Source: Cyanobacteria bacterium P01_A01_bin.123 (GTDB taxonomy: Bacteria > Cyanobacteriota > Cyanobacteriia > Phormidesmidales > Phormidesmidaceae). From it: a stretch of 64,000 nucleotides of DNA. A model generated the notes under the pieces. It was not told where the DNA came from and did no database searches. It saw nothing but the letters and a program-made list of their open reading frames with translations. Within the stretch, counting starts at the first letter, position 1. The number at the start of each line of letters is the position of its first letter. The stretch is from positions 128,001 to 192,000 of the forward strand of contig JBCBZT010000005.1 of NCBI GenBank assembly GCA_039815185.1, written 5' to 3'. Positions 13,459-46,598 of this stretch are shown here, one piece after another. A program made the translations under genes and the position numbers.

Positions 13459-13529
13459 CGAGGGAACCTCCCAATTGCTTCGGTGGGAAGATTCCTATGG
13501 AGTTTGGATGTCCTTGTTATCGTGGAAGT

Positions 13530-13724
13530 ATGGACTTCAAGCCCCAAGACCCTATCAAATACTTGGAAGGCGGCAAATGGATTGACGCCATTGTTATGGC
13601 TTATGCCGCCCCATTACTGAAGGTTGGCGTTGAAGTAAAGTGTCAGGGCAACGAGCGCTATCAAGTCGTTTCAATTAATTTGGCATACCCTGAGCAATGG
13701 CGATTGATTGGCCCGCCTTTCTAG
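13530..13724 (+). CDS. Small hypothetical protein, antisense within the tail operon
   Basis: MDFKPQDPIKYLEGGKWIDAIV..., 64 aa, fills the intergenic gap. Confidence 0.5.
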   Translation: MDFKPQDPIKYLEGGKWIDAIVMAYAAPLLKVGVEVKCQGNERYQVVSINLAYPEQWRLIGPPF

Positions 13725-16700
13725 AGCCCCGATCGCCTCACCATCTGGGCCATACGCTCCATCTCCAAACCTACAACGTCCTGTTGGGGTTGCTGGGTTT
13801 GCAGGGTGTAATAGGCTGGCGGTAGCTTTGCCGATCGATTGCTACGCACCTCATCAATCAGTGTCTGCATTTGCCGCTCAAGCCTTGCGGTACTCATAGC
13901 CACCGGAGCAGCCACCCCAGCGGTAAAGCTACCCATGGGGGCCATCAGGTTGGCAGCATCACGAGCGCTAAGGGCTTCTCTGACCAAAGCTCTGGATTGT
14001 TGCTGGCTGACCACCCGGGTCCCACGTGGAGGTACCAGGAATTCATCTTTGTGAACTTGCACCAAGCCACCTTCGGCCACGCCTCCAGACCTGAGGCTTT
14101 GGGCTGAGCTATCGCTACGAGCACTCTCCAGAATCGCAGCCACCCGCTCAGCATTCTGGCGATCAAGCCGCCGCTGCTCATCCTTGAATTCCCGCTCCCG
14201 ATCGCGCTCTGCATCAGCAAAGGCTTCCTCTAGCGCCCGTTGCTCATCCTCGAAGGCTCGCTGGGCATCCTCGGCTATCTGCTGGCGTTCCTCTTCAAGG
14301 TCTGCAATGCGTTGGGCTGATTGCTCGCGCAGGTCATTCAGCCTGAGTTCCTGGGCCTCTTTGAGCTGTTGGAGCTGCTCTTCATCGGCAATACGCTTCT
14401 GTTGCTGGGCTTCCTGAAACGCCTCCTGCTGGGCTTGTAAGCCGTCCTCAAAGTCTTGTCTGGCCTGCTCTAGTGGAGATAGCTCTAGCTGACCGTTGCG
14501 ATCTGCCTCGGCTAGGACACTGCCTGAATTGTTGAGTACCTCTTGCTCAATTTCTCGCCGTCGCCGTAGTTGCTCGTCTTCGGCAGCGAAGCGTTCTTCA
14601 AGGGCCCTTTCCTCCTCAGCATTAGCAGCCTGGTCTAAGGCAATGCGGCGCTCAACCTCTTGATTGAGGGCAGAGAATTCACGGTTGCCTCGATCGCGAA
14701 TAGCGGCGATCTCCTCCTGAAACGCCCGCTCCTCATTCTGGCGTTCTTGGTCAAGGCGGCGCTGGAGCTGGGCAACATCTTCGGCGTCCCGACGCTGCTG
14801 GGCGGCTATCTTGGCCTCAGAATCTTCCCTGAGCTTTGCAACCTGCTCCTCGGTTTGCTTTTTGAAAGCCGCTTGCTCCTCGTCAAATCGGGCTTCATCT
14901 TGCCGTGCTCGCGCTTCCTCGGCCCGTTCTCGCTGGAGGGCCGAATCATCGAAAGCCCGCTCGGCAGCTTCAGCAGCGGCACGGCGTTGCTCTTGGAGGG
15001 AGTCGGCTTCCGCTTTGGCCGCAGCTTGAGCGGCCTCAATTCTCGCCTGTGATGTGGATTCAGCAACATCTACCCGTTGCTTAGCGATATTTTCCTCAAG
15101 CTGTAGCAGCTCCTCTTGATCGTCGGCGCTAATTGTTCCGGCGTCTGCAAGGGCTTGCAGCTCACTAAGTCGCTCTTGATTGAGCCTCAGCCTTCTATCT
15201 AAGAAGCTCTGCTCGCTGGCCAATCGCTCCTCTTGACTGGCATCTTGATTGGCCAATCGCTCCTGTTCTGCTAGCTCCTCTAGCCTCAAAAGCCTCAGTC
15301 GCTCTTCGAGGGAGTTTTCTTGGCTTCTGGTGGAGTCTTCTAGGTCATTTGACGTCGCTGCTGTGCTGCTGCTAACAACGTTTCTCAGTCCTTGATATGC
15401 CCTGGCAAGTTCATTAATAGTGCCTGCTACTCCCCCAGTCTCAACTACCTCAGGAAACTGACCTAGAACGCCCAATGCTTGAAGGGCTTGGGCGCGTAAC
15501 TCTTGGATGCTGTCAATAAATCCAGTGATCTGATCGATGGCCGGCCCAAAGATGTCGGCTGCGGTTTCTCTGACCTGATCAATGAACTTGATTAGAGCCC
15601 CAATTTGGTCAATCAGGTTAAGGACGGGGCCGATCGGGCCTTGCATGGCAGCGGCAAAGCGCTCACCAAATACCGGAATCCCTTCGGCTGCGTCCTTTAT
15701 TTGATTGAAGGCGGTTATCAGGTCAAACAGAAACTGCACCGTTTCTCCAACGACCGTGATCGCCGTGCCAATACGTTCAATGTTTTGGGCAAATTGGTTG
15801 ATATTGGCGTCATTGCTCAGGAAGTCGGCGAAGGCATCAACCAGCCCAGCGAGTTGATTTGTCGCAGTGTCGAGAACAGACGCGATCGCCTGCCCAAGTC
15901 GCTCTGCAATCTCCGGGTTCTCCTCAAGTACACTTCCTAGCCTCTCCCCGGCCTGGTTAAGCGCGTCAAAGCCTTCGCTAGCGTCGGTTGTGGCCTCAAG
16001 TAAGTCTCTAGAGAACTCCACTACAGCCAGCTTGATAGGTGCTAAGGCTTGCCCGAACTCCGTCAGCGCAGCGCTGATTTGACCTTCCAATAACTCAGCT
16101 TGGCGCTCTAGGGATTGGTTGATGATCTCAAGTGATTCATCAACCGCCCCTGCTGAATTGCTCAGGTTTTCAAGAGTCTGCGCATACTTGCCATCAACCT
16201 GACCGAGTAGGGCTAAGATGGCTGGCGCACCTTCGTCGCCAAAAATCTTTTTGGCTAGCTCAAGCTGCTCTTGATTGTTCAGGTCTTGGGTTGCCGCTGC
16301 AAAGTTGCGGATAGTCTCCTCAAAACCCCTGAAGCTACCGTCCGCGTTGAATGCTAGGTTATCGACCCCGTCGATCTTCGCGGCTAGCCCACCTAGCAAC
16401 TCTTCAGCCTCGCCGCTGGGGGCTGATAGCCTTAGTAGGGAGATTCTTAGTCCTGTAGCTGCGGTAGCTGCCGAAAATCCACCGTCACGTAGCGTTGAAA
16501 ATCCCGCTGCAAGTTGGTCGAAGTCAGCATCCAGAGTGCCGGCCAGCGGCCCCACATCCTGAAAGAACTGGAAAAACTCTTCAATCCCTTGCGCCGAGCC
16601 CGCTGCCGTGGTGTTGATCAGCGTGTTCAGCTTGTCGGTGATACTATCTGCCGACTCGCCCAACTCTTCAAAGTTGTTGATGCCCGTCTGCACCACCCGC

Positions 16701-44915: not shown

Positions 44916-44948
44916 GGCGCAGCAGGTGTGGTGTCGCTACGAGGGTTC

Positions 44949-46598
44949 CTATCTTCTGCCAATCTGTTTCCCTGTCTCTGGATCAATGCGGAGTTCTTCG
45001 CAATCGCGGTTTGGATCTAGAGTAATGTAATCAGGCAAGGCAGTACGGCAGAGCTTTGCTTGAGTGAGTTGGGATTGGGTTAAGTTCTGCACCTCTTCTA
45101 GATGGGCTTCCCAAAGGTTTGCCCCTTCTAGATGGGTGTTCATAAGTTTTGCCCCATCTAGATGGGCATTCCTAAGTTTTGCCCCATCTAGATGGGCGCC
45201 CCTAAGGTCTGCCCCATCTAGATGGGCATACCCAAGGTTTGCTCCTTCTAGATGGGCTCTCCCAAGGTCTGCCCCTTCTAGATGGGCGCCCCCAAGGTCT
45301 GCCCCTTCTAGATGGGCGTCAAAAAGGTCTGCCCCTTCTAGATGGGCATGCCCAAGGTTTGCCCCTTCTAGATGGGCATTCCTAAGGTTTGCCCCTTCTA
45401 GATGGGCGTCAAAAAGGTCTGCCCCATCTAGATGGGCATTCCTAAGGTTTGCCCTTTCTAGATGGGCATTCCTAAGGTTTGCCCCTTCTAGATGGGCTCT
45501 CCCAAGGTTTGCCCCTTCTAGATGGGCTCTCCCAAGGGTTGCCCTTTCTAGATGAGCTTCCTCAAGGTCTGCCTCTTCTAGATGGGCTTCCCAAAGGTTT
45601 GCCCATTCTAGATGGGCTTCCCAAAGGTTTGCCCCTTCTAGATGGGTGTTCATAAGTTTTGCCCATTCTAGATGGGCACCCCCAAGGGCTGCCCCTTCTA
45701 GATGGGCTCTCCCAAGGGTTGCCCCATCTAGATGGGCTTCCTCAAGGTCTGCCTCTTCTAGATGGGCTTCCCAAAGGTTTGCCCCTTCTAGATGGGCTCT
45801 CCCAAGGGTTGCCCTTTCTAGATGGGCTCCCCAAAGGATTGCCCCATCTAGATGGGCTCCCCAAAGGGTTGCCCCTTCTAGATGGGCTTCCTCAAGATGT
45901 GCCCCTTGCAGATTTGTTCCAGCTAGGTTTATTCGTTGTTGGTCATCTTTAATGTTGCGACGCCCGATGACAGTTAGCGCACTCTGAATGGCTTGGCTTG
46001 GCTTTCTCTCTGCCTTCTCACCTGCACCCTGTGACTGCTGAGCTATGAAACTGCTCACGAATGAACCGTGCTGCACATCCTCGGGTTTCCCAGCTCTATC
46101 TCGAACAAAAGCAGTCAGAACCTCCATGACGACCGGGTGATCCTCTTTTGAGTCCCTCGCGATCCGCTCAAGCGAGTAGATGCCACCCAGCCTCATCTCC
46201 AGCTTTTCATCGGCCAGCATCTCTACGGCTCTGCTGAAGCGATCTGTCACGTTCTTGTCTTCTGCAAGCTGAGAGTTGCGCCAAGCCAAATAGGCTGTGG
46301 CAATGAAACCTAGGCCCGCAACCGTTTGAACAACCGTTAAGACATTCCCCCGGTTGCTGTTGATCACATCAGCTCGCCTTTTTTCAGCCTCACTAACAAC
46401 AGGAGGGACATTCCTTTGCGGAAGTTGTGTCAATAGAAACCATCCAAGGAGAGGTATAAGCACTATCCCAGCTACACCACCAATCCACGGAGCAGCAGGC
46501 TTGAGTCGCTCGGCTAGGATTTTTGCTCTATCAGTGAGTGGTTTAGCTCCGCTGAAAAGCTGCCTTATCCGAAATCCCTTGTTCTGCTGCTTTGCCAT
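44949..46598 (-). CDS. Membrane-anchored pentapeptide repeat protein
   Basis: Two TM segments, DRFS.A.E.L...RLGGIY.LERIA domain, AHLEG/ANLxx repeats. Confidence 0.92.
   Translation of the reverse strand: MAKQQNKGFRIRQLFSGAKPLTDRAKILAERLKPAAPWIGGVAGIVLIPLLGWFLLTQLPQRNVPPVVSEAEKRRADVINSNRGNVLTVVQTVAGLGFIATAYLAWRNSQLAEDKNVTDRFSRAVEMLADEKLEMRLGGIYSLERIARDSKEDHPVVMEVLTAFVRDRAGKPEDVQHGSFVSSFIAQQSQGAGEKAERKPSQAIQSALTVIGRRNIKDDQQRINLAGTNLQGAHLEEAHLEGATLWGAHLDGAILWGAHLERATLGRAHLEGANLWEAHLEEADLEEAHLDGATLGRAHLEGAALGGAHLEWAKLMNTHLEGANLWEAHLEWANLWEAHLEEADLEEAHLERATLGRAHLEGANLGRAHLEGANLRNAHLERANLRNAHLDGADLFDAHLEGANLRNAHLEGANLGHAHLEGADLFDAHLEGADLGGAHLEGADLGRAHLEGANLGYAHLDGADLRGAHLDGAKLRNAHLDGAKLMNTHLEGANLWEAHLEEVQNLTQSQLTQAKLCRTALPDYITLDPNRDCEELRIDPETGKQIGRR
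45091..45900 (-). repeat. 27 tandem 30-bp units encoding A-H-L-E/D-x-A-x-L-x-x
   Basis: Invariant TCTAGATG core every 30 bp. Confidence 0.9.

Follow-up and report, generated by a model that had tools for sequence, protein, structure and literature searches.

The stretch of DNA analysed here (the window) comprises 64 kilobases (kb) of an 8.09-megabase (Mb) cyanobacterial assembly (contig C82, positions 128001-192000). It harbours a prophage in which a short motif, recurring upstream of virion genes, has the appearance of a late promoter that would be read by a sigma factor encoded by the prophage itself. The left attachment site is a tRNA-His gene (8130..8203, plus strand; the sole Rfam match), and an 89% copy of its 3' part with an integrase alongside (C82:201330-201428) places the right attachment site and integrase about 9 kb outside the window, giving a prophage size of about 65 kb. 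The gene complement recognised by PHROGs and Pfam includes terS, terL, portal, MuF, scaffold, capsid, neck and tape measure genes together with repressor-like and replication genes; neither resource recognised an endolysin in the prophage. The labels terS, terL, MuF, scaffold, capsid, tape measure and sigma derive from PHROGs/Pfam, and that of the tail tube (a tube-family tail gene) from a protein atlas.

The motif and its sites

A preliminary description of this DNA had listed 14 YAGGAAY heptamers shortly upstream of gene starts. All 14 are present at the positions and on the strands then given, separated from the start codon by 26-35 nucleotides (nt), and all read (T)AGG-AAYYHT-N6-G. They are listed below with the 9-nt box, the predicted transcription start (+1) and the gene or open reading frame (ORF; lengths in amino acids, aa) that follows.

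13481..13497, minus strand: box 13488-13496, predicted +1 13481; 177-aa ORF after the tape measure gene
17322..17338, minus strand: box 17329-17337, predicted +1 17322; tape measure gene
18779..18821, minus strand: box 18812-18820, predicted +1 18805; tail tube gene, hairpin from box to start codon
19041..19080, minus strand: box 19071-19079, predicted +1 19064; 68-aa ORF, hairpin covers the start region
20338..20354, minus strand: box 20345-20353, predicted +1 20338; head-tail operon, divergent from the next site, no hairpin
20361..20377, plus strand: box 20362-20370, predicted +1 20377; fibre block, divergent from the preceding site, no hairpin
29138..29154, minus strand: box 29145-29153, predicted +1 29138; major capsid gene (start 29113)
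30565..30581, minus strand: box 30572-30580, predicted +1 30565; scaffold gene, with a box at this position in relatives too
33900..33916, minus strand: box 33907-33915, predicted +1 33900; MuF gene
35500..35516, plus strand: box 35501-35509, predicted +1 35516; full portal gene (35536-36975)
38871..38887, minus strand: box 38878-38886, predicted +1 38871; 65-aa portal N-terminal fragment
40715..40731, minus strand: box 40722-40730, predicted +1 40715; terS-terL
40842..40858, plus strand: box 40843-40851, predicted +1 40858; 72-aa ORF (40882-41100)
44935..44951, minus strand: box 44942-44950, predicted +1 44935; 183-aa ORF containing a coiled coil and a hydrophobic segment

As had been noted, the TAG of the motif doubles as the stop codon of the upstream gene in three cases (ORFs 19078-19512, 30579-31700 and 44949-46598). 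The targets then proposed hold for terS, MuF, scaffold, capsid, tail tube and tape measure, but not for the neck as a direct target (the 20354 site fronts a 129-aa ORF located 5' of the neck gene), nor for a second copy of the portal. The supposed copies are a single complete gene (35536-36975, plus strand) and a 65-aa N-terminal fragment (38651-38848, minus strand; matching portal residues 9-47 only, at 56%), each with its own box; no additional portal pieces were found, and 34031-35335 was rejected as a second portal.

We stress that the heptamer alone is weak evidence: it has 47 matches in the window, of which the 14 listed sites are a subset, and the 41 matches between 8.5 and 63 kb are roughly twice the number (19.7) that the remainder of the genome would predict. 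The longer word TAGGAAYYHTC occurs 12 times in the prophage against 0.2 expected (about sixtyfold) and, extended by NNN-RCG, nine times in the prophage and nowhere else in the 8.09 Mb; these patterns were picked after the sites had been seen, and the longer word is not due to chance. A check of 44 ORFs in the 8.6-48.8 kb region registered 14 AGG boxes and one GGG box in all. Other heptamer matches were set aside: 36949 lies within a terminator-like stem 3' of the portal gene and, like 63501 and 63528, is not followed by a purine at +1, and those at 45174-45474 are located in pentapeptide repeats. The words at 63501-63528 constitute an inverted pair of box-like sequences, 52 nt 5' of a 92-aa ORF at 63553.

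Promoter geometry in the prophage and its relatives

Relatives were collected by capsid and portal searches, which recovered 9 of 173 genomes of the order (own genome included) and 2 of 401 of the phylum; the records of the named relatives are Leptolyngbyaceae, Oculatellaceae, Leptolyngbya and other cyanobacteria. The first family set (85 sites, 17 loci) leaves out genome G014, five distant relatives, the duplicate locus L035, sites beyond 29-46 nt, GGGT/GGGC/GGC words except the L052 and G572 variants, and the GGG words of this phage; it holds 13 of the 14 window sites, that at 40842 having been missed by the ORF caller. The second set was drawn from viral contigs searched with the sigma alignment: 80 of 271 loci were kept, the 27 with longer matches were examined, and five of these were dropped (two near-duplicates, a distant locus, and one each with a host-like and an RpoD-type sigma), leaving 22 loci with 54 further sites. 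A viral scan with the capsid protein gave no match, and cultured phages yielded no capsid match and only distant sigmas, so that the cultured-phage collection offers no bench-ready relative.

By the sigma-70 convention the last T of the -10 hexamer stands at -7, and since we set the final T of the box at this position, +1 is predicted 7 nt further on. The element would be a 9-nt extended -10 with an invariant final T. Its hexamer holds A at position 2 and T at position 6 in all 14 window sites, every one of which also has Y at -1 and G at +1. Across the first family set a purine occupies +1 at 80 of 85 sites, as opposed to 106 of 174 other occurrences of the same word (p 3e-9), the +1 position having played no part in picking the sites; the corresponding figures for the second set are 40 of 54 versus 65 of 126 (p 0.005). 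Box-to-ATG distances among 1457 ORFs fall at 29-46 nt in 74 cases, the second set shows 1.94 boxes per position at this distance versus 0.21 further out, and boxes without the last T display no peak before starts. A second peak lies at exactly 15 nt (8 ORFs from three gene families, over a background of 0.62 per position); here the first ATG coincides with +1, which points to leaderless transcripts in these eight genes. Between -40 and -17 the information content is at most 0.10 bit (85 sites) or 0.21 bit (54 further sites): nothing is conserved at -35, which suggests a weak or absent -35 element, as for the J-box.

The J-box recognised by SigJ of Nostoc punctiforme (GGGaAtacT) is an extended -10 with a weak -35, in which the conserved -10 bases correspond to the invariant A and T and the G triplet is termed absolutely conserved (PMC6495340). 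The prophage box shares with it the purine triplet, the hexamer with invariant A and T, the weak or missing -35 and the affiliation to a group 3 sigma factor. It differs in its triplet, which is AGG at all 14 window sites where the J-box has the conserved GGG, in a preceding T and a pyrimidine-rich hexamer, as well as in its location in a prophage, before virion genes. Within the family the GGG triplet is found at 38 of 85 first-set and 35 of 54 second-set sites.

Could the motif instead be an RNA signal in long transcripts, either a Shine-Dalgarno-like element or a site for a translational activator that opens hairpins, in the manner of Com at Mu mom? Its strand specificity and its overlap with the 5' arm of hairpins reaching the start region (see below) would suit such a role. 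The fixed Y/R step 6-7 nt past the box and the exact 15-nt spike fit a transcription start site, the back-to-back sites 20354 and 20361 occupy an 80-base-pair (bp) divergent gap with no room for another promoter, and matches to sigma-70-type promoters in the 26-46 kb region are at chance level (11 vs 13.6), all of which makes an RNA signal very improbable. Terminator-like sites in the same region are at chance level too (17 vs 18.9 in shuffles), so that long read-through transcripts probably coexist with short ones. From the earlier proposal of many individual promoters instead of one long transcript we retain the approximately 14 promoters; these would head short operons and not each gene, probably alongside read-through.

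A sigma factor of SigF/SigJ descent

The putative cognate sigma factor is listed below, with two further features close by.

42894..43682, plus strand: SigF/SigJ-derived sigma factor, 262 aa (Pfam r2 and r4_2; NCBIfam)
43669..44367, plus strand: 232-aa ORF overlapping the sigma stop codon
42728..42739, unstranded: perfect 12-bp palindrome; either strand gives a GGG box of host type followed by a purine at +1, one pointing at the second recombinase and the other at sigma

The best NCBIfam match of the sigma factor is SigF (NF005644, E 7e-49), at 166.8 bits and below the cut-off of 261. Regions 2 and 3 are retained, region 2 being identical at 46 of 74 positions to a host paralogue on contig C14, and an alignment-based structure model (mean predicted local distance difference test, pLDDT, 81.6; 48.8 for the single-sequence model) matches sigma structures. 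In the phylogeny, 14 host SigF/J proteins form their own clade (100/98 support), with the phage proteins outside. A further divergence concerns the region 4.2 helix, by which sigma factors read the -35 element: the recognition helix of this protein contains no basic residues, and paired basic residues are found there in none of 10 prophage sigmas versus all 14 host SigF/J (a count that leaves out one further host sequence). Of the 150 best relatives 144 could be aligned, and 16 of these keep the pair. A sigma unable to read -35 and promoters devoid of it fit each other, as for gp36 of phage phiEco32. In region 3.0 this sigma has a valine in place of an arginine kept in 140 of 144 relatives; a region-3.0 code for AGG, which fits the strict AGG of this phage, fails for the AGG boxes of other phages and is no more than a lead.

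The palindrome lies 39 nt before the ATG of a second recombinase and 166 nt before the sigma start, and it is not conserved before the sigma genes of the relatives. It possibly links the sigma gene to host SigJ or to autoregulation, and a host-type GGG box at this place could tie induction to the host SigJ programme.

The 232-aa ORF is found immediately 3' of sigma in six relatives (G044, G166, G571, G574, L052 and L032), and its product gave weak matches only in a phylum search. This conserved neighbourhood would suit a reading of the motif as a DNA site for a phage activator acting with host SigA, of the Mu C or P2 Ogr type, with the 232-aa protein as a candidate. We find this hardly credible: the motif itself fills -15 to -7, and no separate SigA -10 is conserved downstream.

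Phage or host sigma factor

The presence of the boxes follows that of the sigma gene. In eight prophages with a SigF-like sigma, box and purine precede 71 of 477 ORFs, compared with 3 of 252 in five distant relatives where such a sigma was not found (an RpoD-like sigma is present in one of these, and two are 20-kb pieces). Portal and scaffold orthologues in the relatives are boxed, and the box varies by phage, being AGG here, mostly GGG in G574, and GGC in L052 (portal, scaffold). On sequence evidence, both the promoter reading of the motif and its link to the phage sigma, as put forward in the preliminary description, are supported.

The host background was assessed in 6226 crude ORFs by a distance test at 28-46 nt, where GGGWAYNNT is found 41 times versus 21.8 expected and AGGAAYNNT 4 times versus 15.1; hence the GGG box is enriched before host genes and the AGG box is not, which argues for few host targets of the phage sigma.

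We consider it very probable that the motif is a phage late promoter, made up of a single extended -10 with no -35 and read by the prophage's own SigF/SigJ-derived sigma factor. That host SigJ or SigF reads the boxes (alone or in addition), thereby tying virion genes to motility or stress and leaving the phage sigma as an accessory or as a regulator of host genes, appears improbable to us. The host does possess two SigF/J genes and GGG boxes at the same distance from its starts, the phage box departs from the J-box at mainly one base, a GGG palindrome precedes the phage sigma gene, and non-essential sporulation-type sigmas of Bacillus phages provide a precedent (PMC9429907). Against it stand the AGG of all 14 sites, where the J-box has an absolutely conserved GGG (PMC6495340), and the near absence of boxes from relatives without the sigma.

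Some observations nonetheless count against recognition by the phage sigma. GGG boxes are frequent among relatives (35 of 54 in the second set) and might be read by host SigJ, and the G014 prophage (contig C175) has GGG boxes at terS, portal and scaffold with no sigma on its 58-kb contig; it may use host SigJ, or its sigma gene may sit on a missing piece. AGG boxes are also frequent where the phage sigma has retained the region-3.0 arginine of the host, so that no residue-to-base code is established. A control word without the last T is also low in the host (37 vs 50 at 28-46 nt), which weakens the host depletion of AGG, and the phages are kin rather than independent, hence the p-values given here overstate.

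Among the relatives, locus pair L065/L066 (G572) carries a box of another type, GGGCATGAT, in three copies that have a flank in common (portal, scaffold and a gp25-like gene), and L075 (G576) has RGGCATAAT twice, at leaderless distance; the RpoD-like sigmas of G572 and G576 group together in the tree. A gp25-like baseplate gene (a label given by sequence reading, not family search) with a leaderless box occurs in G166, G571, G572, G573 and L050, while this phage has tube and tape measure genes without it; sigma and box seem to be common to different tail types.

Predicted hairpins across the start site

Many boxes form the 5' arm of an inverted repeat. In a swap test, in which promoter halves were exchanged among sites so as to control for motif and composition, own promoter-leader pairs folded better than swapped ones at 11 of 13 window sites (the two exceptions being the back-to-back pair 20354/20361), at 66 of 85 sites of the family (p 2e-7) and at 34 of 54 sites of the second set (p 9e-4); host controls were null (19 of 41 GGG sites, 48 of 120 random starts). 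The tape measure site (17322..17338) reached a swap z of -3.2. Co-directional sites fold more strongly than divergent ones (mean z -0.97, n=58, vs -0.32, n=27; p 0.012), these classes being automatic and containing errors. The stem centre has its median at +5 (110 of 139 sites with at least 6 crossing pairs), which means that RNA starting at +1 would be without most of the 5' arm. The predicted folds indicate co-adaptation of promoter and leader, which pair with each other over the start site; the preliminary description mentions neither these hairpins nor the altered region 4.2.

The strongest hairpin is that of the tail tube leader (-28.6 kcal/mol and z -7.3 in read-through RNA; -3.5 from +1), and the leader of the 68-aa ORF behaves similarly (-19.8 kcal/mol and z -3.3; -1.7 from +1), whereas three other tested leaders fold no better than shuffles. 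At the 13481..13497 site the inverted repeat covers GGGAGG (fold z -1.0 vs shuffles), and at the capsid site (29138..29154) the stem pairs with the GAGG that precedes the start (fold z -0.9 relative to shuffles). Three relatives have a common 12-pair scaffold stem with one compensatory change.

We regard it as plausible, if somewhat short of probable, that the hairpins add a second layer of control, by which read-through RNA masks the start region and own-promoter RNA is translated. In keeping with this, the 3' arm covers the start region at the tube gene, the 68-aa ORF, the capsid gene and several scaffold genes (0.72-0.87 pairing to the promoter arm). The family-wide results are less favourable: pairing between promoter arm and start region, seen at 53 of 85 first-set sites, falls to 27 of 54 in the second set (p 0.14); the start region opens in +1 RNA no better than in controls (62 of 85 vs 31 of 41 and 146 of 200); sense and antisense folding barely differ (46 of 85, 29 of 54); and G166 shows no hairpin effect (5 of 14). 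A block of translation by the fold, strong at a few genes and not replicated family-wide, is not established.

The hairpins may quite possibly be real without being translation locks, and serve to protect upstream mRNA 3' ends, to pause polymerase or to act on DNA, although we would not call this probable either. The folding signal replicates and the start-region pairing does not, the antisense strand also shows a signal (54 of 85, 34 of 54), and the stronger folding of co-directional sites fits as well; the covered start regions at the genes named above and a loop at about +5 speak for locks instead.

Proposed mechanism and known systems

We reason that, after induction, the phage sigma (42894-43682) would be made and would associate with host core RNA polymerase to read the boxes, transcription starting at the G 7 bases past the last T; approximately 14 promoters would then fire together, each heading a short operon on either strand, and the AGG variant would keep them mostly beyond host SigJ/SigF in the lysogen. 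At many internal sites the promoter would be the 5' arm of a hairpin with its loop near +1, so read-through RNA would fold over the start region and may be muted, and RNA from the gene's own promoter, devoid of the 5' arm, would be translated, as for T4 gene e. With one promoter per module, inversions such as those seen here (fibre block, portal) would be tolerated.

Phage-encoded switches for the virion genes of temperate phages include lambda Q, which controls a single late operon, and RinA, which reportedly acts at terS, again for a single late operon; they rely on one promoter and one long operon, in contrast to the approximately 14 promoters on both strands proposed here. T4 gp55 is a phage-encoded late sigma factor. 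So are gp36 of phiEco32 and gp47 of Salmonella phage 7-11, and gp36 reads a single element and is without region 4 homology (PMC8948821). The prophage system would share with this type a phage-encoded sigma and several late promoters, with a box that is common to virion genes and rare in the host; the differences are that those phages are lytic and enterobacterial, with unrelated sigmas, whereas here a temperate cyanophage keeps the region 4 fold without its DNA-reading residues. The SigF promoter of Synechocystis combines TAGGC (-32) with GGTAA (-12) and needs the -32 element (PMC2758279); the sigma family and the G-rich -12 region are shared, but no -32 element is conserved here and the phage sigma is without the basic residues of region 4.2. 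In T4 e, soc, 49 and I-TevI the late promoter is part of an RNA hairpin by which longer transcripts conceal their ribosome binding site (PMC3014915). There too the promoter is the 5' arm and is absent from its own transcripts, although in T4 this concerns few genes and is experimentally shown, while here it is a predicted tendency of the whole late regulon.

Our literature search, with most subscription papers and all supplements outside its reach, returned no paper on these promoters or on this sigma clade. Phages are not mentioned in the accessible text of the J-box paper (PMC6495340) or of PMC11119718, no phage-specific promoter motifs are reported for Ma-LMM01 in that of PMC5780444, and sigma genes of temperate cyanophages are annotated without a target or read as host-metabolism genes (PMC12284385, PMC6157547; accessible parts). 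Late control by phage sigmas is already known; new here would be the SigF/J origin, the lost -35 reading, the shifted box and the regulon-wide hairpins in a temperate cyanophage.

One sigma clade would thereby gain a specific function, with predictions down to the single base: 14 start sites, an invariant A and T and the lack of a -35. The AGG, GGC and GGG boxes with their diverged sigmas would offer a natural test bed for extended -10 reading by group 3 sigmas, and gene expression in cyanobacteria could profit from a sigma-promoter pair unread by host sigmas as an orthogonal part. Should the hairpins act as locks, they would extend to the whole regulon of a lysogen what T4 does at gene e. As a tentative and rather doubtful generalisation, a widespread clade of temperate cyanophages may have captured the SigF/SigJ motility sigma, stripped its -35 helix, shifted the extended -10 (AGG, GGC or GGG by lineage) and acquired many small promoters, each doubling as the 5' arm of an RNA lock. 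Were both capture and lock true, a virion gene would be translated only from its own phage-sigma transcript, with read-through silenced in the lysogen, subunit ratios would be set gene by gene, and modules could invert or reshuffle freely.

Gene order and further features of the prophage

Gene order varies among close relatives, and one junction falls inside the promoter repeat: contigs from runs X3 and X4 (one study) join 38863 to 30564, within two box copies (30559-30581 and 38865-38887), and in one X4 contig portal and MuF are co-directional (33878-36695), unlike their orientation in the window. These contigs are about 85% alike to the prophage and may represent related phages; their shares in the two runs are small and have no bearing on habitat. 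A second tyrosine recombinase, XerC/D-like and distinct from the right-end integrase, adjoins the sigma gene (41879-42700). It also occurs in G014, G166 and G574, with a box upstream of it in the latter two, and it may drive the prophage inversions.

Between the portal gene and the portal fragment, a low guanine-cytosine (GC; 39%) gene with a sulfotransferase domain (37078-38500), bounded by repeated elements, is probably an insertion. The head-completion operon contains a 76-aa gene (27303-27533) with a Tad2-like (Thoeris anti-defence) domain (Pfam E 5e-25). In the early region, a low-GC 892-aa ORF (57178-59856) with an eCIS_core domain and no family for its C-terminus looks like a cargo gene of the polymorphic-toxin type. 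Repeats were noted at two places: 33-nt palindromic ones, spaced 48 nt, in the region of a Dam-domain gene (52602-52682), and a 30-nt DNA repeat array carried by the gene of a pentapeptide-repeat protein (44949-46598).

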